From positions 54,389 to 118,388 of the forward strand of contig CAVYBN010000007.1 of assembly GCA_963766795.1 (NCBI GenBank): DNA of 64,000 nt, given 5' to 3'. Below, piece by piece: positions 1 to 62,768 of this stretch. Below the pieces are notes generated by a model. That model saw only the letters and a program-made list of their open reading frames with translations. It searched no databases and was not told where the DNA came from. Position numbers and translations under genes: made by a program. Origin of the DNA: Candidatus Parcubacteria bacterium (GTDB lineage: Bacteria; Patescibacteriota; Minisyncoccia; Phycocordibacterales; PALSA-1337). Numbering within the stretch: position 1 is the stretch's first letter; each line of letters begins with the position of its first letter.

Positions 1-3000
1 ATATAGTCAGGACCGGCGTGCCGGCCAGGTCGGCGCTGTAGCTCATGGGTGTGCCGTTGGCGGAAGTGCCGGAGATCGGCATGTCCACCCAGGTGATCAC
101 GCCTGAATCCTGTGCGAAATTCTCATTGCCCATCTCGAAGTAAGACGCGGAGGTCGAACCGGTATTCCAGTCATATGTGAATGAGCCGTTGCCGAGGTTG
201 AAGCCGCCTTGGAATGTCGAAGTCGAGGTCGTGGCGTCGGCGTTATAGTATCCAGCCGCGATACCGCCGTTGACTCCAAGTTGAAGATACGGCGAAGTCG
301 AAGCGATGCCAAAGAGGCCGTTCGAAGTGATGGTCAAATCCGGCATGGTCGAAGTCGAATACGCGTCGCTCGAAGTGCCGAGATAGAAGTTGCCGCCTTC
401 GGAGCTGAACAGCCAGTGCTTGAGGTTGGCGCCGGCGCCGCTGTCAGTCAGAGCCAATTGACCTTGGAATGTCCCATTGGCGGAAGTCGAAGCTATTTCA
501 AGAGACCAATTCGGAGTGGTGGTGCCGATGCCGACATTGGTTCCATTGTCGTAGATTAAGCTGTTCGCGAATGTGCCGTTGGAGTTCCATTTTGGCAGAT
601 AATTGTTGGTCAATGAAGAGACTGTTGATGAGCCGAGTAGGCCAAGCGAAGAAGTGGCCGACAATGTGTAGCCGCTCAAAGCGTTGCCGAGGAGAAGCTG
701 GCCGTAGTTTGGCGTTGACGACAATCCGGTGCCGCCGGAGGAGATAGCCAGAGCTGAAGCCAGAGACAGTGAATTCGCGGACAATGTGCCGACATTTCCA
801 TTCGTGGCATAAAGATTGGTGGATGAAGCCGTAGTCGCGTAGAAGCTGGTGGTGGTGGCGGCAGTGCCGGTGGCGTTGGTGAAGGTGAAGCTATTCAAAG
901 TGGAAGAGGCGAAGACATACAAGTTCGTCGTCGAAGCAAAGGATGAGCTGATCATCGTCGTTGAAGCGTATGGGAATTGCGAAGCGACTGAAGAAGTCGC
1001 AACAAAGTTCTGTGCCACGACTTGTCCTGCCACTGAAAGCAGTGAGTACGGCGATGTGGTGCCGATGCCGACCGCGCCGTTCTGGATGCCGCCGGAGCCG
1101 TTGGACTGCGCGTAGACGGTCAACAAGGGACTGCTGGCGATAGTGGCCGTATAGCTCTCGGCTACGCCGGCCGCGGCGCTGGATAGCGGCAGATCCACCC
1201 ACGAGACCGTGCCGGCGTCGGTGTCGAAGCTCAAGTTGCCGAGCTGGAGGTTGCTGATGGAAGTCACGCCCGAACCGAACGAATATTGGAGGGCGCCGCC
1301 GCCGACATTGAGCCCGCCGGCGAATGTCGAGGTGGCCGTAGTCGAAGTGGCGTAGAAATCATTGGCCACGACTTCCCCGGCCACCGAGAGCATGTCGTAG
1401 GGCGAAGTCGTGCCGATGCCGACATTGCCGGAGAGATACGAGGTCAAAGCGTTCGGGTCGAACCAGAACTTGGCCGTGGTAGTCGAGGTGTTGCCGATAG
1501 CCAGGATGTCGCTCCCATTCAGGGAATAATTGACGATCTCGCCGGAAACCTGCGAGGTCGTGGTCGCCCACGAGCTCAAGCTTCCGCCGCCGCCGGTGCC
1601 GCAAGCCGCGACGCTGGCCGAAACCGAGCCGTCCGTGCCGACCTGGAGGCATCGGGTCGAAACGCCTGCGAGGCTTTGCAAGACAGTGCTGCCGGAAACG
1701 TTCAAGTTGGTGGTCGAAGCGGTAGTCGCCGTGATCATGGTGGTCGAAGCATAGGCTATTTGCGAAGTCGAAGAAGCGTTGAAACCGTTCTGGAACCAAG
1801 CGATGCCTGTCGTGGCTTGGTCAGTGGCGGCAAAATTGGTCGACGGCGTGAATGGATACGCGAATGTGTCATAGCCTTGCTGTGAACCCCAGTAAGCGGC
1901 GGAAGTCGTGGAGAACGCGGTGATGCCCAAGCTGGAGGTCGCCAATTGCTGCCAGCCGCCGCCCGCGTACGAACCGAGAAGGATACCGGCGGCAGTTGGA
2001 TTGCTAATGCCCGTGCCTCCGCCTGCCGCTGTTAATATTCCGGAGCTGGTGGCATTGAAGGTGAATGAACCGCCTGTGTTGGTGATATATATGCCTGTGG
2101 TGAGGCCGTTATTGGTGGCACCGGTCGTGGTGCCAAGCGTTATGTTCCCTGTCTGCGCCGTTCCGTATGTCTGGGCGATCGTGAGCGAAGTGGTGGCGGA
2201 TTGGAGACAAGTGCCGCCGATGGCGTAGCAGCCGGAGGTGATGTTGTGACCGCCGGCAAAGGTCGAGGTGGCGGTGGTGGTGCCGACGAAGTATCCGGCG
2301 ACGGCGGCATTGCCGAGAGTGGAAGTGCCTTCGACGGAGAGAGCGAAGGTGGGAGACGATGTGCCGATGCCGACATTGGCAATATTGATATAAATATTAG
2401 GTCCCCCACCCGCCAGAGACCAATAGGTCGGGTTACTGCAAGAAGTCCATAATACTCCATCTCCTAAACCAGCTCCAAGACACTTGCTAAAAGAACCTAA
2501 TGAGCCTCCGGAATCAGCCACGGAACCCGAAAGATTAAGTATGTTAGAGACAGTCAGATTGGTGGTCGAGGCATTTACAAATTGAGAGGCTTTCGTGGAG
2601 GTGGCTGTCAAGTACGCGACCGTCGGCGAAGTCGAAGAGATGAACGCGCCGGAATTATTGATGCCGAGCCAGCCTTGGCCGAAGGAGGTCTGGCCGGTGC
2701 CGCCGTACAAAACCCCAATAGATGTCGTGGCCGAGACGACGCCGGAGATCGCTTGGAGCGGTCCGGTCAGAGAGCCGATAACCACAGAACCATTGTTGTT
2801 GACTTCAAACGGCGTGGTCGTACCGTTCGAAGTCGAAGAGCTGATGGCAAACATCGGCGCGGTAGCTGACCAGTTCGGCACGCCGATCGAGAGCGCCGCC
2901 CAAGGAGTCGAGCTTCCGATTCCCACATTGGTTCCGTTGTCGAAGATCAAAGAATTGGTGAAAGTTCCATTGGAGTTCCACTTTGGCAGATAATTATTTG

Positions 3001-3215
3001 TCAGTGAAGAGACGGTTGACGAGCCGAGAAGGCCGAGCGAGCTGGTGGCGGAGAGCGCGTATCCGCTTAGAGCGTTGCCGACCAATAGTTGGCCGTAGTT
3101 CGGCGTTGATGACAATCCCGTGCCGCCACCTGCGGCAGTGAGAATGCCCGAGGTAGTTGCGGACAGAGTAAATGAGCTGCCAGTGTTAGTTATGTATATT
3201 CCAGTTGTGAGCCCG
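1..3215 (-). repeat. Degenerate tandem copies of the repeat modules of the adjacent giant surface-protein gene. Minus-strand translation is protein-like but hops between frames and has no intact ORF. This is either a decayed 3' extension or pseudogenised paralogue, or a repeat-collapse assembly artefact.
   Basis: Blocks ~541-800, ~2040-2230 and ~2940-3130 match 3845-4110 of the giant gene at nucleotide level. Minus-strand translation of 3121-3238, in the frame offset by one from the called ORF, reads TSTGATNNGLTTGIYITNTGSSF.. TGLSSTPNYGQLLVGNALSGY, which matches the internal repeats of the giant protein. The six-frame track shows only short ORFs on either strand here. Confidence 0.5.
2622..2995. 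repeat. Near-identical direct duplicate (~375 bp) of 3472-3845, at an 850 bp period
   Basis: Identical runs are seen by eye (cggtcggcgaagtcgaagagatgaacgcgccggaattattgatgccgagccagcc...). The track ORFs 2595..2993 and 3490..3843 translate identically. Confidence 0.85.
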
Positions 3216-6200
3216 TTATTGGTGGCGCCGGTCGAAGTGCCGAGCCAAATGTTGCCGATCTGGGAAGTTCCGTATGTCTGCGCGATCGTGAGCGAAGTGG
3301 TGGCGGATTGGAGACAAGTGCCACCGATCGAATAGCAACCGCCGGTCAAGTTGAGTCCGTTTGCGAAAGTTGAAGAAGCTGTGGCTGATGTGGCGTTGAA
3401 GATGGAAGCGGAGAGGCCGGCCGGCGAATGTGGAGGTGGCGGTAGTGGAAGTCGAGACGATGTAGTTCACGGTCGGCGAAGTCGAAGAGATGAACGCGCC
3501 GGAATTATTGATGCCGAGCCAGCCTTGGCCGAAGGAGGTCTGGCCGGTGCCGCCGTACAAAACCCCAATAGATGTCGTGGCCGAGACGACGCCGGAGATC
3601 GCTTGGAGCGGTCCGGTCAGAGAGCCGATAACCACAGAACCATTGTTGTTGACTTCAAACGGCGTGGTCGTACCGTTCGAAGTCGAAGAGCTGATGGCAA
3701 ACATCGGCGCGGTAGCTGACCAGTTCGGCACGCCGATCGAGAGCGCCGCCCAAGGAGTCGAGCTTCCGATTCCCACATTGGTTCCGTTGTCGAAGATCAA
3801 AGAATTGGTGAAAGTTCCATTGGAGTTCCACTTTGGCAGATAATTGTTGGTGAGGCTTGAAACCGTTGACGAGCCGAGCAGACCAAGAGAAGAAGTGGCG
3901 CTACAGTGTAATATCCACTCAAAGCGTTGCCGAGGAGAAGCTGGCCGTAGTTTGGCGTATTGAAAGACCGGTGCCGCCGCCGGCCGCAGTGAGAGATTCC
4001 CGAGGTGGTGGCGTTGAAAGCTGAAGGAGCTTCCGGTGTTGGTGATGTATATGCCAGTGGTGAGTCCGTTATTGGTGGCGCCGGTTGAGGTGCCAAGCCA
4101 GATATTCCCCGTCTGCGCCGTTCCGTATGTCTGGGCGAGCGTCATCGAGGTGGTGGCTGACAATATTCCCAAGGACGAAGTCGCGTATTGCGTGTATCCT
4201 CCGACCGCATTGCCGATCAGCAATGACGATGAAGCTATCGAAGTCAGCCCGGTGCCGCCGTAGAGGACGCCGACAGAAGTGGTGGCCGAGACGACGCCGG
4301 CGTTGGCTTGCAAGGGACCGTTCAGCGATGAAGATAGAGTCAACGAATTGGCGCTGACTGAATTCAAAGCACTGGCTCCATTCACCGTCAAGGTTCCGAT
4401 ATTGCCATTAGTCGCGTAAAGGTTAGTTGAAGAAGCTGTGGCCGCGAAGAAATCGGTGGTGGTCGCGGCCGTGCCGGTGGCGTTCACGAAGGTGAAATTC
4501 TGCAGAGTCGAAGAGCCGGTCGAGAGAAGGTTCGGAAATTTCGCCAGACCGCCCACGGTCAGAGTGCCGGTGGCCGTGATGTCCCCGGCCGTCAGGCTTC
4601 CGGAAAAATATCCGTTGCCTTCGACCGTGAGCGGCATGAAGGGCGAGGTCGTGGCGATCCCGAGAAAGCCGAGCGTGGTGTCGAACAGGCTCTGGTAGTC
4701 TCCAAAGACCACATTGCCCTGCGAACCAAGGGAGGTGGAGCTGGCAGCCAAGACGACATTGCCTGAACCATCCGGCCCATATCCTCCTTCTATGTAGACG
4801 GCCCCTCCAAATTCACTGCCTTCTTCACCAACGCCGCCACTGGCGCTTCCGGCATTCCCTCCCAAGAGAGACAGATCACCACCGCCGCCGGCGATGTTGA
4901 AGGCGGCATTGTTAGACGCGTTGCCGCCGTTGCCGCCTTGGATCGTGACCGTGCCTCCCCAGCCGCCATTATTGAAGCCACTCCCGGTAACGACATTCTC
5001 CGAACCGCCGGTGCCGCCGAGGATGTTGACCGGACCGCCTTTGCCGCCGTTGATCTGGCCCGAGCCGGCGTTGGTGCTGACCCCGCCCAAGCCGCCGTTC
5101 AAGATGATCCCGCCGCCAATGCCGGCTATCGGAAAATTGCCGAAAGTGGAATACGAAGTGTTCCCGCCGGTCGCGCCAGTGACCAAGAGCGAAGTGGTGG
5201 CATTGGTGCCGTATTGGGTCGCAACCGACGCTGGTTGCGGGTTATTGATCATCAAGCCGCCGGTCGAGCCGAATAGGTTGAGCGTGAGCGCACCCACGGA
5301 ATTGACGACGGCCGCCAGATAGTCGGTGTTGTCGTACGCGAGATCGAGCTGCGGCACGGCCGAGGAATTGTTCTGGACCGAGAGCTTGGCGTATGGGCTC
5401 GTCGTGCCGATGCCGATATTGTTGGCGTCTTTGGTGGTCGTGCCGAAGACCAGAGTGCTGGTCGAGAAGACATTCGCGCCGTTCGCGCCGTAGAAAGCGG
5501 CCTGGCCGGCCACGCCGGTCTGGACAGAGGATGCGCCGAGCAGACCCAGTGTCGTAGTCGAGACTGACGTCCAATTGGAGCCGTTCCATTGGATCAGGCC
5601 GCCGGTTCCGAGCGATGTCCCGAGGCCGGCCGGAGCGGCGATGGTGGAGGATGAATTGACGAAATAGTTGGCCGAAGTGGTCGAGAAAGCTATGATGCCC
5701 AAGGACGAGGTGGCCATCGAAGAGACCGCGCCGTTGGTTCCGAACAGGATGCCATTCAAAGACGAGGCAAGATTGGTGGCGCCGCTGACCGTGAGCGAAT
5801 TTGCGGATACCGAATTCAAGGCCGACGCTCCATTCACGGTTAATGTTCCGATATTCCCGTTAGTCGCGTAAAGGTTAGTCGAGGAAGCCGTGGCCGCGAA
5901 GAAGCTGGTGGTGGTGGCGGCCGTGCCGGTGGCGTTCGTGAAAGTGAAATTCTGCAGAGTCGAAGAGCCGCTGACAAGGAGATTGCCGAGCGTCGCCAAG
6001 CCGCTCAAGAAAGACTTCTGCGCGTTCGGGTCGAACCAGAATTTGGCCGTGGTGGTGGAAGTGTTGCCGATGGCGATGACGTCGGTCGTGTTGTTGGAAT
6101 AGTTGACCAGTTCGCCGGAGACCTGCGAGGTGGTGGTCGACCACGAGCCGGCCGCGGCGGCGGCTCCGCCGCAACCCAGAGGATTGGCCGCGACCGTGCC

Positions 6201-9014
6201 GTCGGGACCGACTTGGAGACAGCGGATGGTCAAGCCGGTGAGGGCCGAGAGGACGACATTGCCGTTGAAAGTCGCGGAGCCTCCGAAGACATTCGCGCCG
6301 TTGAAAGTCTGGTCTCCGGTGAAGGTGTTGCTGGAAGATGTCTTGGAAATGGTCGATGAGCCGTTCGCGTAGTAGTCAGCCGAAGTCGTCGAGAATGAAA
6401 GGAAGCCCAAGCTCGAAGTGCCGGTCAAAGCGTAAGTGCCGTCCGATTGGCCCATCAACAGGTTGCCGTACGAGGGAGCGCTCGAAAGGCCCGTGCCGCC
6501 GTTGCCGACGGCCAGCGTGCCAGTGGTTGAAGACAGCGGAATCGAGAGATTCAAAGACGATGTCGCGATCGAAGAAACTGCTCCATTGGTCCCGAATAGG
6601 AGGCCGTTCAGAGCGCCGATGGTCAAGGCCGTGGTCGAAGCATACGGCAGTTGCGAAGCCGCGGAAGAAGTCGCGATGAAATTCGAAGCCGTCTGGTTGC
6701 CGGCGACGAAGGAATTGCCTTCGACGGAGAACAGCGCGAATGGCGAGGTCGTGCCGACGCCGACGTTACCGTTGGAGAGGATCGAGAGCACGGTCTGCGA
6801 AGCTTGGCCGAAGAATTCGGCGATCTTGCCGGCGCCGCTCTGCAAAACATTGATAAATGTTCCTGAAGATGAAGTGGCGTTCTGCGCGTCGCTCCGCAGG
6901 AATTGCGATGAATTCAGACCACTCAAAGCCTGCGCGTTGGTTGCCTCGAAGGCCGCCGGCACCGCGCCGAGGATCTTGCGCGGCGACATCTCGCCGTCCC
7001 ATGTCGGAGTCGGAGCGTTGGCCGTGCCGCCGATGTCGACGCCCAGATACAGCGTCTGATTGAAGTTGACGCCCGTGAATGGCGTGGTCGAGCCCAGCAT
7101 CAGGCTGAAAAGCCCGCTCTTCAAGGCCGCGCCTTGGCCATTCGAGACCAGATCATCCTCGGTCCAGATCGGCGCGCCGCCGGACAGCGAGGCGTAGAGC
7201 TTGAACTCGACGTTGTACGAGCCGTCGGCGACCGTGTTGCCCGAAGCGTCCATGAGCTTGCCCTGGTAGTTGATCTCGGGATTGAAAGCGGCGTAAGCGA
7301 TGGGCGAGAACAGCTTGAAGACGAGCGCGAAGATGACGAGAGAGGCGACGACGATGGGGATCGATTGGGAACGATCGCCAACACCGCCGCTCTCTTTCGG
7401 CGACAACACTGTTCCGTCCGAGACCGCTCTGCCTGTCGGCAGAATTGCGGCTCGGTCCGGAACAGTGTTCTCGCCTGCGAGAGCGGCTGACGAAACATTC
7501 TTATCAGTATCTTCGACCATAGCTCTTTGCGCATCGAAAGCCGAGAATTTGGTCGTCTTCCAAGCTGGCGCTTCGGCAATGACAGGATCTTTTTGGATTT
7601 CGGATTTCGGATTTGTCTCGTCCGCCGGCTGGCGGATCGGATTTCGGATTTCGGATTTGTCCGATTCTTGAATCTTGAATCTTGAATCTTGAATCTTCTC
7701 TCCGTTGCCTCCCTTGCCATTCTTGCGCCGCCTCCAGACGATGATCGCGACGATGATCGCGAGCAAGATGGCCGCCAAGATCCAGAGATAATTCCCGAAC
7801 GCGAAACCGGCTGGTAGAGAATTCAGAGCCGCGGCGGTGAAGGCGTCGAGCGAGCCGGAGAGCTGCTTCAAGCCTTGATTCTGATAGTCGAGGATGCTGA
7901 CCGTCAGAGGATATGAGCCGGACCTGCCCAAAGGCCCCATGGTCGCCTCGTAGTAGCTCTTGTCGGCGTTCGGCCGCAGGAGAAAGATGAAAGCTTTGGA
8001 ATGGTCGGCCGGATCGGAGAGGCCGAGCGCGATCGTCTTCAGGATCTGCGGCACGCGGTCGTAGCGCAGGCGGACGGTCAAGTCCTCGGTGCCATTCACG
8101 GAAACGGTGCCGCCGGCTCCGACCGGGATGAGCTTGCCGTCCTGGATGAATTGGAAGTCGAGCAATGACAAGCTGGCGATCATCGGGTCGACGTGCGCGG
8201 CTTGCTGGACATTGACGAAAGGATTCGAGGAGGTGGCCGCGGCGATCTCGCCCGGAAGCGGCATGCGCGCGAATGCCAAGGCGCCGGAAGAGACTATGCC
8301 GTTCATGCCCTCCGCGAAAATGGCGTAATAGTAGGTCACGCCAGCCTTGGCCGTGGCGTCGAAGTATGACTGCTCGGTTCCTTGATATATCGTTTCTCCG
8401 TCAGATTCATTCCCGGGGAAGAACGAGCTCGAACGGATGATCCTGACTTGGATGAAACGGAAGTCGGTCGGGTTCGTCCATAAGAGAGCGATGCCGTTCA
8501 CGAGCGGGGCGGCCGTGAAGCCGGACGGGTTCGGCAAAGGCAGAGTGCCGCCGCTCGAAGAACCGCCCGCGGCTTGTTTATTATTGGCTGGCGGCGTGAC
8601 TGGCGGCACGACCGGAGCGGGCGGAACCGTTTGCTGATAGCCGGCATGTACGGTTTGATCGGCGCTCGCGGAATATCCGGTGGCGACTTCGCCGGCGGTG
8701 TCTTCCGCGCTATAGCTCGCCGACTTCGAATTTCCGCCGCCGAAGTTCACGCTCTCTTCCTGCATCGAATAATGAGGGCTCTGCATCACTTGGGCGTGGG
8801 CGAGAGGAAGAGATGAGAGATTAGAGATAAGAGATAAGAGAAAAGCAAAACTCAAAAGGGAAAAGGCAAGTATTTTGTCACCCCAGCGAAGGCTGGGGTC
8901 CAGGGTATTGCCACCGACGGAATTGGTCGAACCTTGGATTCCCGCCTTCGCGGGAATGACAATAGAAATCGCGGGAATGACAAGCTTTTGAATTATGAGT
9001 TTCGAAATCTTCAT
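3216..9014 (-). CDS. Giant repetitive Gly/Ser/Thr/Asn-rich cell-surface protein. It has a signal peptide and a ~440-aa N-terminal domain ending in a 'LPAGF'-TM-RRRK segment. A linker made of repeat-element insertions follows, then a second signal-peptide-like TM, then a long beta-rich repeat region with recurring GTGLSS.PSYGNLL.G and N(V/I)GIGTTSP..(K)L.V modules. The called C-terminal ~300 codons are out of frame.
   Basis: A 5.8 kb ORF. Translation shows hydrophobic signal-like segments at the N-terminus and again at ~residue 560 (IPIVVASLVIFALVFKLFSPIAYA). Tail-fibre or adhesin-like repeat motifs occur many times. Two segments (SFQRHHLGNLSLRPAAAPVFQYAKLRP... and the final ...RPLRFHLQRHISHSFF...RRHQ) are Arg/His-rich nonsense, typical of wrong-frame read-through in GC-rich DNA. 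Confidence 0.6.
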   Translation of the reverse strand: MKISKLIIQKLVIPAISIVIPAKAGIQGSTNSVGGNTLDPSLRWGDKILAFSLLSFAFLLSLISNLSSLPLAHAQVMQSPHYSMQEESVNFGGGNSKSASYSAEDTAGEVATGYSASADQTVHAGYQQTVPPAPVVPPVTPPANNKQAAGGSSSGGTLPLPNPSGFTAAPLVNGIALLWTNPTDFRFIQVRIIRSSSFFPGNESDGETIYQGTEQSYFDATAKAGVTYYYAIFAEGMNGIVSSGALAFARMPLPGEIAAATSSNPFVNVQQAAHVDPMIASLSLLDFQFIQDGKLIPVGAGGTVSVNGTEDLTVRLRYDRVPQILKTIALGLSDPADHSKAFIFLLRPNADKSYYEATMGPLGRSGSYPLTVSILDYQNQGLKQLSGSLDAFTAAALNSLPAGFAFGNYLWILAAILLAIIVAIIVWRRRKNGKGGNGEKIQDSRFKIQESDKSEIRNPIRQPADETNPKSEIQKDPVIAEAPAWKTTKFSAFDAQRAMVEDTDKNVSSAALAGENTVPDRAAILPTGRAVSDGTVLSPKESGGVGDRSQSIPIVVASLVIFALVFKLFSPIAYAAFNPEINYQGKLMDASGNTVADGSYNVEFKLYASLSGGAPIWTEDDLVSNGQGAALKSGLFSLMLGSTTPFTGVNFNQTLYLGVDIGGTANAPTPTWDGEMSPRKILGAVPAAFEATNAQALSGLNSSQFLRSDAQNATSSSGTFINVLQSGAGKIAEFFGQASQTVLSILSNGNVGVGTTSPFALFSVEGNSFVAGNQTASNFIATSSAASQLPYASTTALTIGALNGLLFGTNGAVSSIATSSLNLSIPLSSTTGTLAVGNGGTGLSSAPSYGNLLMGQSDGTYALTGTSSLGFLSFSTTSADYYANGSSTISKTSSSNTFTGDQTFNGANVFGGSATFNGNVVLSALTGLTIRCLQVGPDGTVAANPLGCGGAAAAAGSWSTTTSQVSGELVNYSNNTTDVIAIGNTSTTTAKFWFDPNAQKSFLSGLATLGNLLVSGSSTLQNFTFTNATGTAATTTSFFAATASSTNLYATNGNIGTLTVNGASALNSVSANSLTVSGATNLASSLNGILFGTNGAVSSMATSSLGIIAFSTTSANYFVNSSSTIAAPAGLGTSLGTGGLIQWNGSNWTSVSTTTLGLLGASSVQTGVAGQAAFYGANGANVFSTSTLVFGTTTKDANNIGIGTTSPYAKLSVQNNSSAVPQLDLAYDNTDYLAAVVNSVGALTLNLFGSTGGLMINNPQPASVATQYGTNATTSLLVTGATGGNTSYSTFGNFPIAGIGGGIILNGGLGGVSTNAGSGQINGGKGGPVNILGGTGGSENVVTGSGFNNGGWGGTVTIQGGNGGNASNNAAFNIAGGGGDLSLLGGNAGSASGGVGEEGSEFGGAVYIEGGYGPDGSGNVVLAASSTSLGSQGNVVFGDYQSLFDTTLGFLGIATTSPFMPLTVEGNGYFSGSLTAGDITATGTLTVGGLAKFPNLLSTGSSTLQNFTFVNATGTAATTTDFFAATASSTNLYATNGNIGTLTVNGASALNSVSANSLTLSSSLNGPLQANAGVVSATTSVGVLYGGTGLTSIASSSLLIGNAVGGYTQYATSSLGILSATTSMTLAQTYGTAQTGNIWLGTSTGATNNGLTTGIYITNTGSSFSFQRHHLGNLSLRPAAAPVFQYAKLRPASPRQRFEWILHCSATSSLGLLGSSTVSSLTNNYLPKWNSNGTFTNSLIFDNGTNVGIGSSTPWAALSIGVPNWSATAPMFAISSSTSNGTTTPFEVNNNGSVVIGSLTGPLQAISGVVSATTSIGVLYGGTGQTSFGQGWLGINNSGAFISSTSPTVNYIVSTSTTATSTFAGRPLRFHLQRHISHSFFNFRKRTQLDRRLLFDRWHLSPIRHHFAHDRADIRNFPDRQHLARHFDRRHQ
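8877..8981. repeat. Family-A palindromic element, inserted in frame at the 5' end of the giant gene (peptide VIPAKAGIQGSTNSVGGNTLDPSLRWGDK). It has an extra partial arm at 8971-8981.
   Basis: gtcaccccagcgaaggctggggtccag ... ttggattcccgccttcgcgggaatgac. The inverted arms match the consensus of the other copies. Confidence 0.8.
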
Positions 9015-9019: not shown

Positions 9020-10438
9020 TTAATTGACCGCGCTCGTCGAAGTCGCCTTGACCGGCACCAAGACGTACAGGAAGTCGTGCCCGGCCACCGTCCTGAAGAC
9101 CGGTTGGATCACGCCGGTGGTCCCGTCCGGATTCGGCCTTACCGTGACCGCGTCGGAGAACGAATTCTGGATGCTCTTCTCGAGCTTGACCTGATCCGAC
9201 GGCGAACCGGAGGGCGGCAGGATGACCACGCCTCCGTGCTCGGCCGTGACCTTGCCTTGTTCTCCGGGCGGGATCACCGACGAGGCGGGCGGCTCTTCCG
9301 ATCCCACGCCGACATCCGCGCTCTCGTCGACGCCGCCATTCAAAACAACCGTAGCGTTCGCATTCGCACTCGAACCGGCGCTCGAAGAAGCATTCACCGC
9401 ATCCGTGCCGCCGACCGCCAGGCTATTCGAAGGCCGGCTGGAATCATTGCTTGCGATCAGTGACAAGGCGTTCGAAGCCAAGCTGGAAGTCCCCGAGAAC
9501 ATCGAGCTCCAAGCCGAGGCTAGCGTCTCGCCGGCTCCGGCGGCGATATTCTCAATCGATTGGAGCGCGATCTGCGGCAAAGACTGGATGGCCGAAGCGG
9601 CTTCCGCGACATTGGCGGCCGAAGCATTTTCCAAAGACGAGACGCTCGAAGAAATGTCTGCGAACGTTTGAGACGGATGCAGACGGGAATTCCCCATAGC
9701 CGTCATCGCGACCAAGAAGATGACCGCCGCCAATGTCGGCGAGAGCAAAGCATACGGAGAACGGACCGCTGATGCGAATCTTTCTGTCGGAGTCGGAAGA
9801 TACGTCCACTTCCAAGCCGGCGGAGGTTCGACGGCCGGCAATTGTCGATTGATGATCGACGCCTGGGCGCGAGCATCGAGCTTGGAGATCGTGACGCGAG
9901 CGACATCGGCTAGCGTTTCGCGGATAGGGATTGAAGATTGCAGATTGAAGATTGAAGATTCACGATTGACGAATGTTTTGTCATTCCCGTGCAAACGGGA
10001 ATCCAGTGTTTTTTCTCTGATGTCAATCGTTTCACCCTGGATCCCCGCTTTCGCGGGGATGACAGAATTACTTGAAATGAGTGATTTCTGATCTTGAATT
10101 TCGGATTTCGGATTTGTCTCGGATTTCGAATTTCTGATTTCGGATTTTGTGGTCATTTCTGACATCGCAGGCTTGAGGTCAATGATCGTCGAAATTCCCT
10201 CATCAGTGAGGCCGAAAACATCCATCTTTTTGAAGATCGTTTGGTTCGGTTTTATCGACTCTTTTTTGTGACGCAAAATTGAGTTCTCGTCGACGTACCA
10301 GAAGCGTCCGACCATTCTGCAGATCAATTTTCCAGCGCGACAAAGCTGACCGACGTAGTCGTTTGAATATCCGGCTATCTCGGCAGCTCGGCGAGACGAG
10401 ATGTATTGCCTGCCTTCGATAATTAGTGAGTCGCTCAT
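9020..10438 (-). CDS. Membrane protein with an N-terminal excisionase/MerR-like HTH domain, a single TM helix (LAAVIFLVAMTAMG) and a Ser/Ala-rich extracytoplasmic tail. Its stop lies 5 bp before the giant-gene start.
   Basis: The N-terminus (RRAAEIAGYSNDYVGQLCRAGKLICRMVGRFWYV) resembles the small HTH protein at 10938..11189. Hydrophobic stretch at ~residue 225. The C-terminal 230 aa are low-complexity S/A/N-rich. The intergenic distance to 9014 is only 5 bp. Confidence 0.55.
   Translation of the reverse strand: MSDSLIIEGRQYISSRRAAEIAGYSNDYVGQLCRAGKLICRMVGRFWYVDENSILRHKKESIKPNQTIFKKMDVFGLTDEGISTIIDLKPAMSEMTTKSEIRNSKSETNPKSEIQDQKSLISSNSVIPAKAGIQGETIDIREKTLDSRLHGNDKTFVNRESSIFNLQSSIPIRETLADVARVTISKLDARAQASIINRQLPAVEPPPAWKWTYLPTPTERFASAVRSPYALLSPTLAAVIFLVAMTAMGNSRLHPSQTFADISSSVSSLENASAANVAEAASAIQSLPQIALQSIENIAAGAGETLASAWSSMFSGTSSLASNALSLIASNDSSRPSNSLAVGGTDAVNASSSAGSSANANATVVLNGGVDESADVGVGSEEPPASSVIPPGEQGKVTAEHGGVVILPPSGSPSDQVKLEKSIQNSFSDAVTVRPNPDGTTGVIQPVFRTVAGHDFLYVLVPVKATSTSAVN
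9980..10063. repeat. Family-A palindromic element, in frame in the HTH-membrane gene (VIPAKAGIQGETIDIREKTLDSRLHGNDK)
   Basis: gtcattcccgtgcaaacgggaatccag ... ctggatccccgctttcgcggggatgac. Confidence 0.85.
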
Positions 10439-11355: not shown

Positions 11356-12997
11356 ATGAAATATATACCGGTGATCGGTCTGGAAATACACGCCGAGCTC
11401 AAGACAGCCTCGAAGATGTTCTGCTCCTGCAAGAATGACCCTGACGAGGAAAGGCCTAATTCCAATATCTGCCCCATTTGCCTAGGCCATCCGGGCACTT
11501 TGCCGGTATTGAATCGCGAGGCCATAAAGCACGTGCTAAAGGTCGGTGTGGCAGTCAACGGCAAATTGGCCGACTTCACCGAGTGGGACCGCAAGAACTA
11601 CTTTTATCCGGACATCCCCAAGGGCTATCAGATCAGCCAGTACAAGTATCCGCTTGGTCTCCGACGGCGAGCTTGCCGGCGTCGCGCTCGAGCGCATCCA
11701 CCTCGAAGAAGACACCGCGCGCTCCACTCATGACATCGAGGTCGGACCTCGACACGGAATACCCAGAGGTCCGACCTCTCTAGTCGACTTCAACCGATCG
11801 GGAGTCCCTCTCTTGGAGCTCGTGACCAAGCCTGTCATCCACGACTCTGCGACCGCAGTCAGGTTCGCGAAGGAACTGCAATTGCTCCTGCGCTCTCTCG
11901 GCGCCGGCGACGCGAACATGGAGAAGGGCGAGATGAGAGTCGAAGCGAACGTGTCAGTTAGTAAGATTGATGAAGAGATAGGAGATAAGAGATTAGAGAT
12001 TAGAGAACGGCGGAGTTCGAAGGTGTCTGTCATTCCCGCTGATTCTTTTGTCATCCCCGCGAAAGCGGGGATCCAGAGTCAAACTATTGAAGGTGGTAAT
12101 ACACTGGATTCCCGCGTGCGCGGGAATGACAAAATTAAACTTGGAACGAAAACAGAAGTTAAGAACTTGAATTCATTCAGGTCGGTGGAGAAAGCGATCG
12201 AGTACGAGATCGAACGTCAGACTTCCCTCTTGGAGAAGGGCGAGGCTGTCGTCCAAGAGACTCGAGGATGGGACGACTCGCTCGGCGAAACTTATCCTCA
12301 ACGATCGAAAGAGAGCTCGCACGACTATCGCTACTTCCCTGACCCGGACATACCCAAGATGAAGCTCTCGGAGATCCCGGAGTTCTCGTCCGCTGAATTG
12401 AAGAAGTCCTTGCCAGAGCTGCCGTGGGTTAAACGAGACCGATTCAAGAAAGATCTCGGCATGACCGACAAAGAGGTTTCGGTGTTCGTTGAGAATGATT
12501 TTCTTTCGGCATATTTCGATCAGACGATTAAAGCCACCGGCACAGATAAGAAGATCGTTCGTCTCGTGATCAATTATCTTCTGACCGATTACGTCGCACT
12601 TTTAAAAGGCTCGACTGATTTGAATGGACAACGGCACCAGTTCCATTTGAATCCTCTGTACATCGAGCCGAAACATTTCGCCGAGCTCATTTCAATGGTC
12701 GCCTCCAATGAGATCTCATCCAGAGGCGCCAAAGACTTGCTTGCGATCCTCTTAAAGGAAAAGGATACTTCACCCAAAGTTCTTGCCAAGAAGCACAACC
12801 TCCTCCAAAAGAGCGACGCCGCAGACATCTCGCCGATCATCGAAAAAGTCATCGCAGACAACGCCAAAGTCGCCGCCGAGTTCAAAGCTGGCAAGACTGC
12901 ATCGCTCCAATTCCTGATCGGCCAGGCCATGAAAGCCGCCAAGGGTTCGGCTAATCCGGAGGTAGTCAAGAAGCTTCTCATTGAAAAGCTTGGCTGA
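11356..12997 (+). CDS. gatB: Asp-tRNA(Asn)/Glu-tRNA(Gln) amidotransferase subunit B. It is split by an apparent +1 frameshift near 11655-11665 and carries at least three in-frame repeat insertions.
   Basis: The N-terminus MKYIPVIGLEIHAELKTASKMFCSC...NICPICLGHPGTLPVLN and the later IHLEEDT...YRYFPDPDIP are canonical GatB. The frame-1 ORF 11356..11733 and the frame-2 ORF 11546..12997 overlap, and the conserved sequence continues across them (..QISQYKYPL | VSDGELAGVALERIHLEEDTA). Inserted peptides are HDIEVGPRHGIPRGPTSL, SKIDEEIGDKRLEIRERR and VIPAKAGIQSQTIEGGNTLDSRVRGNDK. Confidence 0.85.
12029..12129. repeat. Family-A palindromic element (with an extra half-arm at 12029-12045), in frame in gatB
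   Basis: gtcattcccgctgattcttttgtcatccccgcgaaagcggggatccag ... ctggattcccgcgtgcgcgggaatgac. Confidence 0.85.
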
Positions 12998-13003
12998 ATC
13001 AGC

Positions 13004-13022
13004 ACACAGGTCGGACCTGCGT
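13004..13022. terminator. Family-B palindromic hairpin (cacacaGGTCGGACCtgcg), 7 bp after the gatB stop. A possible terminator or REP-like element.
   Basis: A perfect GGTCGGACC core with flanking inverted cacaca/tgcg. The same hairpin recurs at 18069-18089, 56147-56166, 63628-63660 and, split, at 10756-10848. Confidence 0.35.
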
Positions 13023-13199
13023 AATCGGGTCATTTCCACCGTTTGACCCGATTATCGCATTGAAAAACATTCATAATCATTGAAAAAGCTCTCATTCACA
13101 GGAGCTTCTTAGTCTGTAAACATTATTAAAGGCGGATATTCCCTGCTTCAAGGGATGTCGGTAAATTTTATCAGCTTCAATCGATTGAAATGCAGAGCA

Positions 13200-13297
13200 G
13201 GAGATGACGCCTGTTCAGGACGGTGCCCCCCGTGCGAACATTTCTGGTATTCGTTTTGTTGTCAAAGTCCTTCACGGGCATGTTCCTACCGCTCTTT
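13200..13297. repeat. Family-D MITE-like element (reverse orientation, one end degenerate), intergenic between gatB and obg
   Basis: ctgttcaggacggtgccccccgtgcgaacatttctggtattcgttttgttgtcaaagtccttcacgggcatgttcctaccgctc aligns with the reverse complement of 56977-57076. Confidence 0.6.
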
Positions 13298-13305
13298 AAT
13301 AACCT

Positions 13306-14295
13306 TCACTGAAGCAGCTTGACCAGCTCTTCCGCCAGCTTCTTGATGGCGCCATCGTCGAGAACGGAGACTTCAAGGATGTTTACGGAGGTTCGACCTC
13401 CGTTTTTCGACATGCCCGCCAATGCCTTTCTAGCTTTTTTGATCGTATTTGAATCGACCAGATCAGTCTTGGTCAAAATGATGACTTCCTTCTTTTCCGT
13501 GAGCCCTTCGCCGAACTTTTCCAATTCTTTGCGGATCACCCGGTATGCAGCCTCGACGTCTTCGTTCTCGAGGGAGATCAGATGCAAGAGCATCTTGGTG
13601 CGCTTAACATGCCGCAGGAATCGATGACCGAGGCCTTTGCCTTCGGAAGCGCCTTCGATCAGTCCGGGAATGTCGGCCAGAATGTAGCCGCCGGGCAAGA
13701 CACCCAGATGCGGGTCGAGCGTGGTGAAGGCATACGACGCGACTTTGGCGCGAGCATGCGTGAGCGCGTTCAGGAGGCTGGATTTGCCGGCGTTCGGCAG
13801 ACCGATGAGACCGGCGTCGGCGATCAAGTTGAGCTCGACTTTGAAGTCGGCCTCATCGCCATTCACGCCGGGCGTGGATTGTTCCGGAGCGACATTCGTA
13901 GAAGCTTTGAAGTATTCGTTCCCGAGACCTCCGCGGCCGCCGTGCAGGATCTTCGAGACTTGGCCGTCTTCGATGAGCTCGACCACGCGGCCGGAATCGA
14001 CGTTGGTGACGATCGAGCCGATAGGCAGATCTATGTAGCGATCCTTGCCAGTCCTGCCCTGTTTGCTCTGGTTGGCTCCGGCAGAGCCGTCGTCGGCATC
14101 GAAGCGCTTGACCGCCTTGTGGCGAGCCAAGATGTTGAAATCGCGCACAGCGCGCACGAAGACATCGCCGCCCTTGCCGCCGTTGCCGCCGGACGCGCCG
14201 GCGAATTCCTTGAATTTCTCGTGCCGCCAGCGCACGACCCCGCCGCCGCCGTCTCCGGCTTTGGCGTGGAACTCTATTTCGTCTATGAGAGCCAT
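13306..14295 (-). CDS. obg: GTPase Obg/CgtA
   Basis: A Gly-rich N-terminal Obg fold (FHAKAGDGGGGVVRWRHEKFKEFAGASGGNGGKGGDV) followed by G1-G4 motifs (GLPNAGKSSLLNAL, DIPGLIEGA, TKTD). Confidence 0.9.
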   Translation of the reverse strand: MALIDEIEFHAKAGDGGGGVVRWRHEKFKEFAGASGGNGGKGGDVFVRAVRDFNILARHKAVKRFDADDGSAGANQSKQGRTGKDRYIDLPIGSIVTNVDSGRVVELIEDGQVSKILHGGRGGLGNEYFKASTNVAPEQSTPGVNGDEADFKVELNLIADAGLIGLPNAGKSSLLNALTHARAKVASYAFTTLDPHLGVLPGGYILADIPGLIEGASEGKGLGHRFLRHVKRTKMLLHLISLENEDVEAAYRVIRKELEKFGEGLTEKKEVIILTKTDLVDSNTIKKARKALAGMSKNGGRTSVNILEVSVLDDGAIKKLAEELVKLLQ

Positions 14296-14325
14296 GGTCG
14301 GCTCATAGTACGCTACTAGAGCGAA

Positions 14326-14814
14326 TTACTCAACTTTTAATTCATGCTCAATGATCTTCGATTGGTACTCCTTGGTCGAAGGCTTGTCGAACAGGAATCT
14401 CCCTTTGAAGCGCTTGCCTTTGAGGAAAAGCGGCATCCAATAGAGATCGTCTGGCCACATGTCCTTGAATGGGATCTCATTTACGTCGAACCATTGCGGC
14501 TTCATCTCTTCGGTTTCGATCGGGTTGCCGGTAAAATCGCTGACCTTGAAGAAGTTGACTTCGACGATCTCCTGATCGCTTTCGAATACGAAATGTATTA
14601 ATCCGACATTCTCCAGACTCAAAGCTTCAATGTGGGCTTCTTCTGAAAGTTCCCTTTTGGCGGCGTCTTCGATGGATTCACCGTCATGGACTTTGCCGCC
14701 GAAGCCGTTCCATCTGCCAGCGCCGAAGCCGCACTTCTTCAGACCCAGAAGGATTTTAGGCGGCTGGTGCACCAAGCACAATGTAGTGATGATCTTTTTA
14801 TTTTCTGTAAACAT
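14326..14814 (-). CDS. NUDIX hydrolase (MutT/8-oxo-dGTPase-like)
   Basis: Nudix box GGKVHDGESIEDAAKRELSEEAHI, in a 162 aa protein. Confidence 0.8.
   Translation of the reverse strand: MFTENKKIITTLCLVHQPPKILLGLKKCGFGAGRWNGFGGKVHDGESIEDAAKRELSEEAHIEALSLENVGLIHFVFESDQEIVEVNFFKVSDFTGNPIETEEMKPQWFDVNEIPFKDMWPDDLYWMPLFLKGKRFKGRFLFDKPSTKEYQSKIIEHELKVE

Positions 14815-14942: not shown

Positions 14943-14957
<15 letters not shown>
14798..14957 (-). CDS. Small zinc-ribbon protein (~53 aa, CxxC...CxxC). Its start overlaps the secA stop.
   Basis: The track ORF 14798..15073 is out of frame with secA over its first 38 codons. The internal ATG at 14955-14957 gives MARENSKKGKRSVESLHHFSCARCHKWWTIGDAPAKKLEWHCPWCGKKNVYRK. 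Confidence 0.35.
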
Positions 14958-18032
<3,075 letters not shown>

Positions 18033-60643: not shown

Positions 60644-61327
60644 ATGACTTACCTTCACTGGGACGAAACAACAATCATCGACTTCTCCGAGAAGAATATT
60701 TCCGCCATGTACGACTGTGGCTATGTTTTCACGCGTATCGGTAAAGGAGTGATGCAACAGACGCGCTCGGTGCGCATCGATTTGAGCAAGTTCGAATTGA
60801 CGAGCGAGAATCGGCGCATCCTAAAAAAGGCTGCCCTTGATGGATTTGAGACGATTTCAACACCTTGGGCACATTACGATCTGCGTGTCGGTAAGCTAGC
60901 TAAGGATTTTTATACTGCCAAATTTGGTCCGAATATCATGAGCGCCTTTAAAGTGAAAGAAATGATGACTAATCCTGCGCGCAACAATTTTAATGAAGTG
61001 CTCATATTCTCAAGCGATTCAACGGCGATTGGTTGGACTATCTGTTACAAAAATACCGAGCTCCTTCATTATTCGTATCCCTTCTATGATTTAAATGTGT
61101 CGTCAAAAGATATGGGACTTGGCATGATGATCCGCGCGATTCAATATGCAAGGGATTCTGACGTGAAATACGCCTACCTCGGATCCCTTCAGCGCCCCGG
61201 CGACACCTATAAGCTCCAATTCGCAGGCCTGGAATGGTTCGACGGCGGGCCTGATGGTTCGAATAAGTGGTCGACAGATATTGATAGAGCGAAAAGAATC
61301 CTATCATCTGCTACTCTTGAATCCTGA
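60644..61327 (+). CDS. ATE_C-domain (arginyl/leucyl-tRNA--protein transferase, Bpt/Ate1-like) aminoacyl-tRNA-dependent transferase candidate
   Basis: LIFSSDSTAIGWTICYKNTELLHYSYPFYD...KYAYLGSLQRPGDTYKLQFAGLEWFDG matches the ATE_C pattern (..D.lsdglS.VY.fydP....SLG...yvYLGY......YK..F.P.E). There is no Cys-rich ATE_N. Confidence 0.5.
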   Translation: MTYLHWDETTIIDFSEKNISAMYDCGYVFTRIGKGVMQQTRSVRIDLSKFELTSENRRILKKAALDGFETISTPWAHYDLRVGKLAKDFYTAKFGPNIMSAFKVKEMMTNPARNNFNEVLIFSSDSTAIGWTICYKNTELLHYSYPFYDLNVSSKDMGLGMMIRAIQYARDSDVKYAYLGSLQRPGDTYKLQFAGLEWFDGGPDGSNKWSTDIDRAKRILSSATLES

Positions 61328-61330
61328 ATC

Positions 61331-62761
61331 ATGAATCTTGAATCTTCTCAAAACCTGCCTGAACACATCCACGTCATCGGCATTTGCGGCGTGGCAACGA
61401 GCGCTTTAGCCATAGCTTTCCACAAGGCCGGCGTCAAAGTCACCGGCTCCGACAAAGGCTTCTTCCCGCCGGTCTCGACCGAGCTTGAAAAAGCCGGCAT
61501 CCCCTTCTACGCCGGCTGGCATCCTGAAAAAATCGCAGAGAATGGCATGCCTGATCTCATCATCGCCGGTGCCAGCGGTACGAGCTTGTCCAATCCAGAG
61601 ATCATGTACACGAAGGAAAAAGGCATTTCTCTTCTTTCGTTCGCAGAAGCCATCGGAAAATATGTCGTAAGAAAAAATTCCGTCGTTTGCACTGGAACTT
61701 GGGGCAAGACGACGATTTCGGCCTTGCTTTCATTTATCTTGTCGGAAGCCGGCATGAGGCCGAGCTATTTCACCGGCGGTGTTTCGCTATCACATCCGAC
61801 AGGGGTTATTTCCGATTCAGACTGGAGCGTCGTCGAAGGAGACGAATATCAAGTCTCGATCTCCGACCACCGCCCAAAATTCGTCTATTATGCCCCAACA
61901 CATCTTCTGTTAACTTCAGTCTCCTGGGACCATGCGGACCTGTATCCGACTGAAAAGAGTTATTTCGATACATTCGAAAAGCTCGTTAAAGAAGTCCCAA
62001 AAAATGGCTGCATCGTGGCTTGTATTGACAACGAAGGCGTTCAAAGAACATTAAAGAGTGCGAACGATTTGACCACAGGCCGCAAGGTCGTAAAATATGG
62101 CCGAAATGAATCAGCCGATTATTCATATCATTCACTGACACAAACAGAGAATGGCCTGCGTTTCCAGATAAGCAATGGCAATGAATGCTATGAGATAGTC
62201 TCTCCGATGCTCGGCGGCTTCAATGCGCAGAATATCACGGCGGCTTTCGCCATGGCACGCACGATCGGAATACCAGCCGACAAGATCATCGCCTCCATCA
62301 AGAACTTCAGAGGCATCAAGCGCCGCTTTGAGAAACGATTTGAAGGCGAGATCACTGTCTTCGATTGCCATGCTCCCACACCGGAAAAAGCTTCTGCCGT
62401 CCTGAAAGAATTACGCGCGATCTATAGTGGCAAGATCATCGCCATCTTTGAGCCGAACATCGGTGGCCGTGAACGCGAAGCAGCCGCTAAGTATTCGAAT
62501 GCTTTCAAAGATGCCGACACTGTGCTCATCCCGCGTCTGACAAAGCTGAAAGTTGCCGAAAATGATTCGAATCAACCGATGGAAGGTATTGAATTAGCCA
62601 CGGTCATTTCAAAGACTCACAAAGACTGTCATTGCATCGAAGACGACGCCGAGCTCGTTGAAACGGCCGTATCTCAAACAAAAAAAGGAGACATCATCGT
62701 CTTCCTGGGCTCGCATGGATTCAGAGGAATGATAGAAGAAACGGTGAAGAGATTGGCTTGA
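61331..62761 (+). CDS. mpl: Mur-ligase family enzyme closest to Mpl (UDP-MurNAc:L-Ala-gamma-D-Glu-meso-DAP ligase). MurC cannot be excluded.
   Basis: HIHVIGICGVATSALAIAFHKAGVKVTGSDKGFFPPVSTELEKAGIPFYAGWHPEKI and GDEYQVSISDHRPKFVYYAPTHLLLTSVSWDHADLY align block for block with E. coli Mpl ([72 protein letters not shown]). Confidence 0.75.
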   Translation: MNLESSQNLPEHIHVIGICGVATSALAIAFHKAGVKVTGSDKGFFPPVSTELEKAGIPFYAGWHPEKIAENGMPDLIIAGASGTSLSNPEIMYTKEKGISLLSFAEAIGKYVVRKNSVVCTGTWGKTTISALLSFILSEAGMRPSYFTGGVSLSHPTGVISDSDWSVVEGDEYQVSISDHRPKFVYYAPTHLLLTSVSWDHADLYPTEKSYFDTFEKLVKEVPKNGCIVACIDNEGVQRTLKSANDLTTGRKVVKYGRNESADYSYHSLTQTENGLRFQISNGNECYEIVSPMLGGFNAQNITAAFAMARTIGIPADKIIASIKNFRGIKRRFEKRFEGEITVFDCHAPTPEKASAVLKELRAIYSGKIIAIFEPNIGGREREAAAKYSNAFKDADTVLIPRLTKLKVAENDSNQPMEGIELATVISKTHKDCHCIEDDAELVETAVSQTKKGDIIVFLGSHGFRGMIEETVKRLA

Positions 62762-62768
62762 TTCCTTT

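Follow-up and report, generated by a model that had tools for sequence, protein, structure and literature searches.

The window analysed here, a stretch of 64,000 nucleotides (64 kb) of contig CAVYBN010000007.1 from a Candidatus Parcubacteria bacterium, carries on its minus strand a giant open reading frame (ORF), 3216..9014 (-), that encodes 1932 amino acids (aa). We consider, with a probability of roughly 75%, that this ORF is a fusion of two genes, one for a membrane anchor and one for a giant surface fibre; that its junction is a hairpin of two transmembrane (TM) segments, termed TM1 and TM2, the second being a former fibre signal peptide; and that the repeats present in the loop between them are secondary. 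All the features described in an initial annotation of the window lie in this ORF. That annotation had interpreted TM1 and its surroundings as a C-terminal sorting signal and had preferred a scenario in which two separate genes were joined by inserted repeats, a genuine multi-TM giant protein being offered as the alternative. Comparative data support the alternative and tell against the preferred scenario, as continuous orthologues exist and the nearest ones are devoid of the heptamer arrays found in the window.

Fused and split anchor-fibre loci

To compare the junction across relatives, 80 loci from species representatives were surveyed in GTDB and their junctions were classified by script, which was possible for 64 loci. 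Anchor and fibre form one continuous ORF at 17 of these 64 loci and are two genes, with the fibre immediately downstream of the anchor, at 37. The fibre is found further downstream at one locus, no fibre motif is present in the downstream flank at three (with more than 1.5 kb of flank present), and the contig end is too close to judge at the remaining six. The two halves are separable modules, as the initial annotation had supposed, and the window carries as one ORF, joined by a TM helix and an internal signal peptide, what is separate in these 37 relatives and fused in 17. Where the two genes are split (37 loci), most fibre starts fall between -23 and +22 nucleotides (nt) from the anchor stop, overlaps of 4, 8, 11 or 14 nt being typical. 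Such a pair can be fused or split by a small indel.

Homologues consisting of the anchor only (P0002, P0003, P0005, P0006 and P0007) end after a TM helix and a tail rich in K and R. A profile search added 79 anchor homologues, and all 54 readable tails (54/54) end in the same manner; in ~40 orthologous genes a TM1-type helix with its K/R tail forms the end of a separately encoded protein. Fused proteins were also present among the first matches, namely P0001 (the closest, 70% identity), P0004 (53%) and P0116, from an NCBI Paceibacterota metagenome-assembled genome, with a loop of ~14 aa; all continue into AFNxEINYQGKL. The scan of JGI metagenomes revealed four more fused ORFs and no near-identical relative of the window. 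When 1.84 billion cluster representatives were searched exhaustively with a profile, generic multi-FnIII proteins dominated the top of the list; only whole-module matches were kept, and these gave at least 16 further fused representatives of 655-7725 aa. As the word-indexed protein searches listed proteins of up to ~680 aa, the fused fraction was taken from the GTDB loci and the profile search instead. The comparison with orthologues that the initial annotation had proposed thus yielded continuous single proteins in each collection (17 from GTDB, 4 from JGI, 3 from the first search and at least 16 cluster representatives).

Fused loci share a common junction: TM1, a basic loop, TM2 and then AxA|xFNxxINYQGKL. 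For the loop and cleavage-site comparisons, 20 fused loci were used (the 17 GTDB loci, L001, L002 and the window). Loops in fused loci measure 0-16 aa, with longer ones of 57 aa (L001) and 102 aa (L006), and the loop of the window is the longest of the 20; over GTDB, JGI and database representatives, fused loops span 0-130 aa. Both L025 and L031 carry a loop made of KKKK between TM1 and TM2. The ORF extends more than 2000 aa beyond the junction in five fused loci.

In a neighbour-joining tree of the anchor module, the window belongs to a clade in which 11 of 12 members are fused, and at least five other fused lineages lie outside this clade. The exception within the clade, L003, carries a Bro-N-domain gene and a gene for a 286-aa secreted protein between anchor and fibre. 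The closest relatives, L001/P0001 (70% identity) and L006 (61% identity), are fused and their loops contain no heptamer arrays. The window loop cannot be aligned with either of these loops, the DNA being too diverged, and neither of them aligns to the hairpin element described below. Because repeat-free orthologues are fused and the fusion recurs, we conclude that it is real, recurrent and older than the repeats.

These data bear directly on the scenario of a repeat-bridged junction, in which stop-free repeats landing in an intergenic spacer would have accidentally joined two genes and generated, in this genome only, a recent read-through product of neutral or deleterious effect. The loop of the window is compatible with such an event, being ~54% repeat-derived, free of stops in its repeats and the longest of the 20, and 37 other GTDB loci encode the modules separately. 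However, L001/P0001, L006 and nine more members of the clade are fused without such repeats, the split loci contain essentially no spacer to insert into since their genes overlap or abut, and TM2 is well conserved between the window (IPIVVASLVIFALVFKLFSPIAYA) and P0001 (TPIVVALIIFALAFKAFVPIAAA). An accidental read-through of this kind is most improbable.

Two further observations concern the junctions of relatives. In P0282 (1226 aa), the same anchor module and a TM1-loop-TM2-'THA|A' hairpin are followed by another passenger than the fibre (AVSDSGLVGYWSFDEGAGT...); hairpin junctions may serve generally to couple exported proteins to this anchor. In L003 (10001-13600 of JGI Ga0395911_000129), the signal peptides of anchor and fibre are almost identical (RIYPSFIFIFALCSLLF... 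and HIYPSFIFIFALCTLLF...).

Organisation of the giant ORF

Only three strong hydrophobic peaks were detected in the 1932 aa with a 19-aa hydropathy window, at aa 45-72, 409-427 and 552-575; a weaker peak is found at aa 2-24, within the repeat-derived N-terminus. The features of the ORF, from its N-terminus, are as follows.

8793..9014 (-): predicted N-terminal signal peptide of the fused precursor, aa 1-74, ending LPLAHA|QV (from hydropathy and orthologue L006)
8610..8792 (-): mature N-segment of the anchor module, aa 75-135, QSPHYSMQEESVNFGGG...AGYQQ, PamT-like, followed by a proline-rich linker
7833..8534 (-): two tandem FnIII-like beta-sandwich domains, the anchor ectodomain, aa ~161-394 (from AlphaFold2 and Foldseek)
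7788..7817 (-): LPAGFAFGNY, juxtamembrane segment, aa 400-409, unconserved in homologues
7734..7790 (-): TM1, YLWILAAILLAIIVAIIVW, aa 409-427, hydropathy peak 2.88, helical in the AlphaFold2 model
7713..7733 (-): RRRKNGK, positive-inside cluster after TM1, aa 428-434; a K/R cluster is also present in fused and separate homologues
7362..7712 (-): loop between TM1 and TM2, aa 435-551, 117-119 aa, ~54% repeat-derived
7666-7697 (-): TCTTGAA x4.6 array, read as IQDSRFKIQES, stop-free on the minus strand only
7591-7614 and 7637-7658 (-): GGATTTC arrays, read as SEIRNP / NPKSEIQ, stop-free in all six frames
7518..7520 (-): in-frame ATG, aa 499, with no Shine-Dalgarno-like motif upstream
~7379-7490 (-): palindromic hairpin element of ~110 nt, resembling miniature inverted-repeat transposable elements (MITE) or repetitive extragenic palindromes (REP), in-frame and read as ...GENTVPDRAAILPTGRAVSDGTVLSPKES..., with arms at 7399-7416 and 7458-7475
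7290..7361 (-): TM2, IPIVVASLVIFALVFKLFSPIAYA, putative internal signal peptide, aa 552-575 (from homology to fibre signal peptides)
6945..7289 (-): beta-rich N-domain of the fibre, aa 576 to ~690, AFNPEINYQGKL...EMSPRKILGAVPAAFEA (from AlphaFold2 and 156 homologues)
2..6944 (-): fibre shaft, repetitive and rich in G, S and T; the listed ORF ends at 3216 and the shaft appears to continue in a shifted frame

The segment LPAGFAFGNY-helix-RRRKNGK reported in the initial annotation is confirmed by hydropathy and translation, at aa 400-434 rather than at about 440 aa. The N-terminal signal peptide is canonical in orthologue L006 (MNILKTIRKF...SSCAHA|QVMSSSHY). Downstream of the TM1 tail, the window encodes ~1500 codons, plus at least 1155 in the shifted frame.

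Homology of TM2 to fibre signal peptides

The fibre N-domain has 156 homologues at E <= 1e-5. The motif INYQGKL was found in 112 of 119 newly listed homologues of the fibre N-terminus, and in 108 of these 112 it starts at or before residue 75. Since INYQGKL directly follows an N-terminal signal peptide in the homologues, TM2 is, as judged from these alignments, homologous to the genuine cleavable signal peptides of separately encoded fibres, and the initial annotation was right to see in it a fresh signal-peptide-like helix.

The predicted signal peptidase I site, AYA|A, lies between aa 575 and 576 (nt 7290/7289) and is followed by AFNPEINYQGKL. Small residues at positions -3 and -1 (AxA or TxA) precede x(F/I)NxxINYQGKL in 18 of the 20 fused loci and in 33 of the 37 split loci. 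From the AxA site being kept as well in fused as in split genes, we infer that signal peptidase I cuts there; the conserved site makes cleavage at AYA|AFNPE, after A575, somewhat more probable than its absence.

It is conceivable that the fusion and the hairpin are real and that TM2 is an uncleaved signal-anchor, in which case the fibre would be held covalently by the two-helix hairpin. Cleavage at TM2 is predicted from sequence; moreover, loops of 0-4 aa, such as the KKKK of L025 and L031, look like compact helical hairpins, and a covalent tether would explain why the fusion was repeatedly tolerated or favoured. We nonetheless regard retention of TM2 as unlikely, given that 18 of 20 fused loci obey the -3/-1 rule ahead of a mature N-terminus that is nearly invariant, which is also the arrangement in the 37 split genes, where TM2 corresponds to an ordinary N-terminal signal peptide, and that the AxA site should drift if TM2 were merely an anchor.

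An internal translation start at the ATG at 7520 had also been put forward in the initial annotation. This codon exists and is in-frame, but none of the motifs GGAG, GAGG, AGGA or AAGG is present upstream. Use of this ATG as a separate start was rejected, as no start codon separates TM1 from TM2 in fused orthologues whose loop is short.

Proposed mechanism of export

We propose, for the fused precursor with a cleaved TM2, that two neighbouring and translationally coupled genes, a conserved pair in Paceibacteria-type bacteria of the candidate phyla radiation (CPR), became fused in-frame. Gene 1 would encode the anchor, made of a signal peptide, a PamT-like N-segment, two FnIII-like domains, a TM helix and a K/R tail; gene 2 would encode the giant surface fibre, with a beta-rich N-domain directly after a cleavable signal peptide. 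In the fused protein, the N-terminal signal peptide would export the FnIII ectodomain, TM1 would act as a stop-transfer segment running from outside to inside and the basic loop would stay in the cytoplasm. TM2, the former fibre signal peptide, would pair with TM1 as a helical hairpin, re-engage the Sec machinery and export the fibre. Cleavage would then free the N-terminus of the fibre and leave the anchor with a two-helix foot, placing anchor and fibre in a 1:1 ratio at the same spot of the membrane. The result would equal that of translationally coupled split genes, which would provide equal amounts of anchor and fibre in the same place. The repeats would have landed later in a tolerant cytoplasmic loop, lengthening it to 117 aa. 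Both this topology and the docking of the fibre onto the anchor are what we infer from the layout of the precursor and its relatives. On the basis of the conserved adjacency and the repeated fusion of the two genes, we argue that the anchor ectodomain is likely the dock for the fibre N-domain.

Among known systems, the nearest precedent for such a mechanism is fbcH of Bradyrhizobium japonicum (Thony-Meyer et al., PNAS 1991): its precursor of cytochromes b and c1 reportedly contains an internal signal sequence and is cut by signal peptidase into 1:1 products. In both cases one ORF encodes two membrane or exported proteins, the internal signal sequence comes after the last TM helix of the first protein, and the two halves are separate genes in other bacteria. 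In contrast to the respiratory cytochromes of fbcH, the products here would be a surface anchor and a fibre, released by a predicted cleavage, and the locus changes many times between the fused and the split state inside a single class of bacteria.

CPR bacteria (Patescibacteria) live attached to other microbes, and the finding bears on how giant surface fibres may stay on a cell that has no outer membrane. The recurrent fusion amounts to a natural 'Rosetta stone' linking a PamR-like tandem-FnIII anchor to a fibre N-domain resembling that of the mosaic adhesive trimer (MAT) fibres of Bdellovibrio. It leads to the prediction that the anchor is the dock of the fibre N-domain, that is, the kind of partner still sought for the MAT fibres. 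The locus would also represent an example of a bacterial polyprotein, probably processed by signal peptidase, for which many natural fused and split pairs are available. For annotation, an internal TM helix followed by a basic tail and a signal peptide in a giant CPR ORF is no reason for automatic splitting.

Absence of a conserved sorting motif at TM1

The initial annotation had compared the LPAGFAFGNY-TM1-RRRKNGK segment with C-terminal sorting signals of the LPXTG, PEP-CTERM or PGF-CTERM type. The positions aligned with LPAGF read AVGGDLG, TVKGFNQT, VTNNFNRS, DLSGNET and SLYNIYKD in homologues, and no shared motif was found before the TM helix in 54 C-terminal tails. The LPXTG_anchor model TIGR01167 scored 11.0 bits against a cutoff of 15.9 and aligned over model positions 9-34 only, the motif being excluded. 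Scores were likewise below cutoff for GG_III-CTERM (13.8 vs 22), Heimdall-CTERM (11.9 vs 24) and Loki-CTERM (10.0 vs 19.9), and all matches to sorting-domain models were confined to the TM helix and the tail. No sortase, exosortase or archaeosortase match to Pfam or NCBIfam models was obtained in the ORFs scanned within the 64-kb window, where the other genes include gatB, obg, a Nudix hydrolase gene, secA, murB, genes for a Wzy/TPR protein and an ABC exporter, and a large cluster of glycosyl- and methyltransferase genes.

The likeness to the three types of signal consists of a hydrophobic helix followed by a basic tail, and the segment is at the extreme C-terminus only in split orthologues, being internal in the window protein. 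The differences are the lack of a conserved recognition motif, model scores below cutoff and the lack of a cognate enzyme in the window. CPR bacteria do encode sortases, and the three-part layout of motif, TM helix and basic tail superficially fits a processed signal recognised by an enzyme of the sortase family. Nevertheless, with LPAGF unconserved in every homologue, all models under cutoff and no sortase domain in the window ORFs scanned, a true LPXTG, PEP-CTERM or PGF-CTERM signal is extremely unlikely. By sequence, the segment is best described as a TM anchor of the plain C-terminal type, its tail being positive-inside, as reported for PamC, PamD and PamR.

Similarity of the first module to PamR

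Neither half of the giant ORF, nor the loop, gave a significant Pfam domain. The N-segment of the anchor module matched NCBIfam NF058579 (CPR_pilus_PamT) over profile positions 4-80 of 241, with E values of 2e-10 to 4.5e-11; the score of 42.6 bits is far under the cutoff of 240, and the predicted local distance difference test (pLDDT) value of this segment in the AlphaFold2 model is below 50. The model of the whole anchor module, built on an 81-sequence alignment, has a mean pLDDT of 81, with values of 86-98 over the FnIII span and a helix at model positions 333-358. When the ectodomain was compared with PDB structures by Foldseek, tandem FnIII pairs were matched at E ~1e-6 and RbmA of V. cholerae at E 3.6e-5. 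The module also contains the conserved motifs KVPxILKTI and ILDYxNQGLK.

In its published description, PamR is an RbmA-like protein that combines tandem FnIII domains with an N-terminal strand and a C-terminal TM helix; it has been proposed as the membrane tether of the CPR Pam pilus (bioRxiv 10.64898/2026.03.03.709456). According to the structural model, the first module is a tandem-FnIII ectodomain with a C-terminal TM anchor and resembles PamR. The two have in common a signal peptide, a tandem FnIII pair and a C-terminal TM helix, and may also share an extra strand-like segment at the N-terminus; both are CPR-specific, and for both a role has been proposed in holding an extracellular filament on the cytoplasmic membrane. 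They differ in their partners, a giant fibre encoded next to the anchor or fused to it in the present case and a donor-strand pilus in the case of PamR. In addition, no PamR model was present in the NCBIfam scans, and the sole sequence match is that of the N-terminus to PamT, below threshold.

No PamA or PamB pilin genes and no PapD-like chaperone genes were found within the 64-kb window; the neighbours of the giant ORF encode an HTH17-TM protein, GatB, Obg, SecA and a glycosyltransferase cluster. Near the anchor gene of the relatives L002 and L003 lie genes for pilin-like proteins (228-239 aa) and for proteins that end in a TM helix (338-400 aa). Proteins encoded upstream of the anchor gene in these relatives carry a PamT-like segment, 'SSxYxLESDSLNFGGG...' (8079-9995 in L003 and 8870-9310 in L002), which in L003 is fused behind a PT-HINT/intein-like domain. 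These arrangements suggest that a Pam-like pilus cluster adjoins the fibre locus in L002 and L003.

Similarity of the second module to MAT fibres

The N-domain of the fibre is beta-rich, measures ~110 aa and is modelled with pLDDT values of 89-96 across its first 100 residues. It matched NCBIfam NF053851 (Bdello_MAT_N) with an E value of 6.7e-6 and 26 bits, under the cutoff of 60. Its best Foldseek match was the Bd2133 fibre (E 0.013, a weak match), and a sequence search of PDB with this domain gave nothing meaningful. No Pfam match over threshold was obtained in the 1384-aa fibre part, nor was an S74 or other known tip domain found within the window, beyond which the C-terminus of the fibre lies.

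In the MAT fibres of Bdellovibrio, the N-domain comes right after the signal peptide and is thought to bind a so-far-unidentified element of the producer surface (PMC10769870). The window protein resembles them in having a beta-rich N-domain of ~110-130 aa placed directly after a signal peptide, and the MATs likewise are long surface fibres, made by a bacterium that lives by attaching to other bacterial cells (PMC10769870). They differ in that the organism here is a monoderm-like CPR bacterium and that fusion to an anchor is unreported for MATs.

The fibre-like sequence does not end with the listed ORF. An open frame of 1155 codons, 2..3466 (-), encodes fibre-like sequence and runs past the start of the window; it is reached by a 1-nt shift near 3430, within GCCGGCCGGCC. 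Four more frame changes were located within ~150 nt at 3915-4142 (-), and the out-of-frame stretches were compared with L001. Probably, either the real fibre protein exceeds 3000 aa or this copy is decaying.

Continuity of the reading frame in the window

Several points weigh against the interpretation of the ORF as a fused anchor-fibre precursor. Firstly, the cleavage at AYA|A and the topology are predicted from sequence rules and homology. Secondly, frameshift-like breaks are present in the fibre (~3430 and 3915-4142) and in gatB (~11655), and behind them may lie either indel errors of the assembly or decay of this copy; the fused relatives L001 and L002 also come from assemblies with obvious frameshifts. 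Thirdly, an error in the number of heptamer units would put the sequence across the loop into another frame. The loop is stop-free in two of the three frames of the minus (coding) strand, so that an open frame by itself is weak evidence and no proof of selection. Finally, the PamT and Bdello_MAT_N matches are under curated cutoffs.

Several of these points are shared by the possibility of an assembly artefact, in which a wrong heptamer count or an indel in the consensus would have created the continuous ORF from genes that in reality lie in different frames or have a stop between them. Indel errors arise easily in heptamer arrays, and frameshift-like breaks are present in gatB and in the fibre. 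The exact products (the giant ORF from three alternative starts and the neighbouring 472-aa ORF) have no record in a public gene index, hence the junction lacks an independent assembly. On the other hand, an independent Logan contig is 100% identical to window positions 12105-14487 (2383 nt), such a contig being found for Obg only, and a random indel restores the correct frame only one time in three. As the fused state is the norm in the clade (11/12), an artefact at the junction is very unlikely.

The same arrays might act as a slipped-strand switch for phase variation of a host-attachment fibre. Were the arrays to gain or lose one 7-nt unit, the frame downstream of TM1 would change and the anchor alone would be made (fibre OFF); restoration of the count would couple the fibre to the anchor again (fibre ON). 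An alternative frame of the loop is indeed open and stops at 7121 (ORF 7121..7720), so that the shifted product would be a fibre-less anchor bearing a ~200-aa tail. We consider a switch of this kind a long shot.

Repeats in the loop and elsewhere in the window

Repeats account for ~190 of the 352 nt of the loop (~54%). The initial annotation had described ~110 aa made almost entirely of repeat elements: the heptamer arrays and the hairpin are present, and they make up about half of the loop. Its statement that the inserted repeats carry no stop codon is true in the frame that is read. These repeats are multi-copy, and the heptamers are lacking in the loops of L001 and L006.

Folded as RNA, the loop hairpin reaches -67.6 kcal/mol (z = -10.8). 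A second copy, 95% identical, is located at ~19653-19762, between murB and the Wzy gene, and one compensatory C/G swap distinguishes the two. Rfam gave no match in the window or at the hairpin. The hairpin was rejected as an intrinsic terminator because no U-run follows it on the coding strand. A GGATTTC-type array is also present in-frame in the HTH17-TM gene (10098-10147) and in secA (15097-15122).

We conclude that the loop repeats are members of a genome-wide stop-free population that survives where extra disordered sequence is tolerated, and that they lengthened a pre-existing loop. Rickettsia palindromic elements are in-frame selfish repeats of a comparable kind. Like these (reviewed in PMC3184786) and the QMITEs of Coxiella (PMC5896051), the present elements are stop-free multi-copy palindromes lying in-frame in genes, functional ones included. 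They differ in that the palindromes occur together with short heptamer tandem arrays and that their hosts include secA, gatB, murB and even a signal peptide. Stop-free repeats in this lineage lengthen loops of real and even essential proteins, and in annotation they are no marks of gene boundaries.

The palindrome translated as 'VIPAKAGIQ...LDSR.RGNDK' is ~90 nt long and is present in at least 10 copies in the window, mostly inside ORFs (murB, secA, gatB, and glycosyltransferase and ATP-grasp genes). Copies are found at 8935-8982, 9976-10064, 12049-12134, 15553-15639, 17295-17387, 18947-19036, 48296-48328, 51603-51635, 57402-57498 and 62759-62855. The element is in-frame where checked, namely in gatB, murB, the HTH17-TM gene and the N-terminus of the giant ORF, and looks like a genome-wide, coding-tolerated MITE-like family. 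In the giant ORF, the copy at 8935-8982 expands the n-region of the signal peptide into a presequence of 74 aa, and a heptamer array (AAGAGAT x5.4, 8808-8845) encodes aa 57-69 (FAFLLSLISNLSS) of its hydrophobic core. Repeat DNA thus appears to supply signal-peptide sequence in the giant protein.

Similar insertions are seen in secA (14943-18032, -). Three different heptamer arrays occupy aa 53-87 (17774-17876), between FRERL and ILDEILPEAF, and more arrays are located at aa 950-982 (15087-15185), between the core and the SEC-C zinc motif; two of the palindromic copies listed above ('IPAKAGIQ...RGNDK', 15553-15639 and 17295-17387) also lie in this gene. In gatB (11356-12997, +), an in-frame insertion of ~60 aa (11973-12150) consists of a heptamer AAGAGAT array and a 'VIPAKAGIQ...RGNDK' palindromic element. 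The frame of gatB is split at ~11655-11663, where the orthologues of L002 and L003 carry extra residues; this frame change is to be explained by a sequencing error, by the collapse of a repeat or by breakage of the essential gene itself.

A TCTTGAA array at 61315-61349 spans the stop of ORF 60644..61327 and the start of a Mur-ligase gene, 61331..62761; within it (61315-61346), the repeat unit itself supplies a TGA on that strand. The HTH17-TM gene (9020-10438, -), directly upstream of the giant ORF, codes for a protein with an N-terminal HTH_17 domain, a TM segment and a conserved domain at its C-terminus. Its product of 472 aa compares with 291-332 aa for the syntenic genes (291 aa in L003) and is longer because of repeat insertions, heptamer arrays and a palindromic element being present in the middle of the gene.

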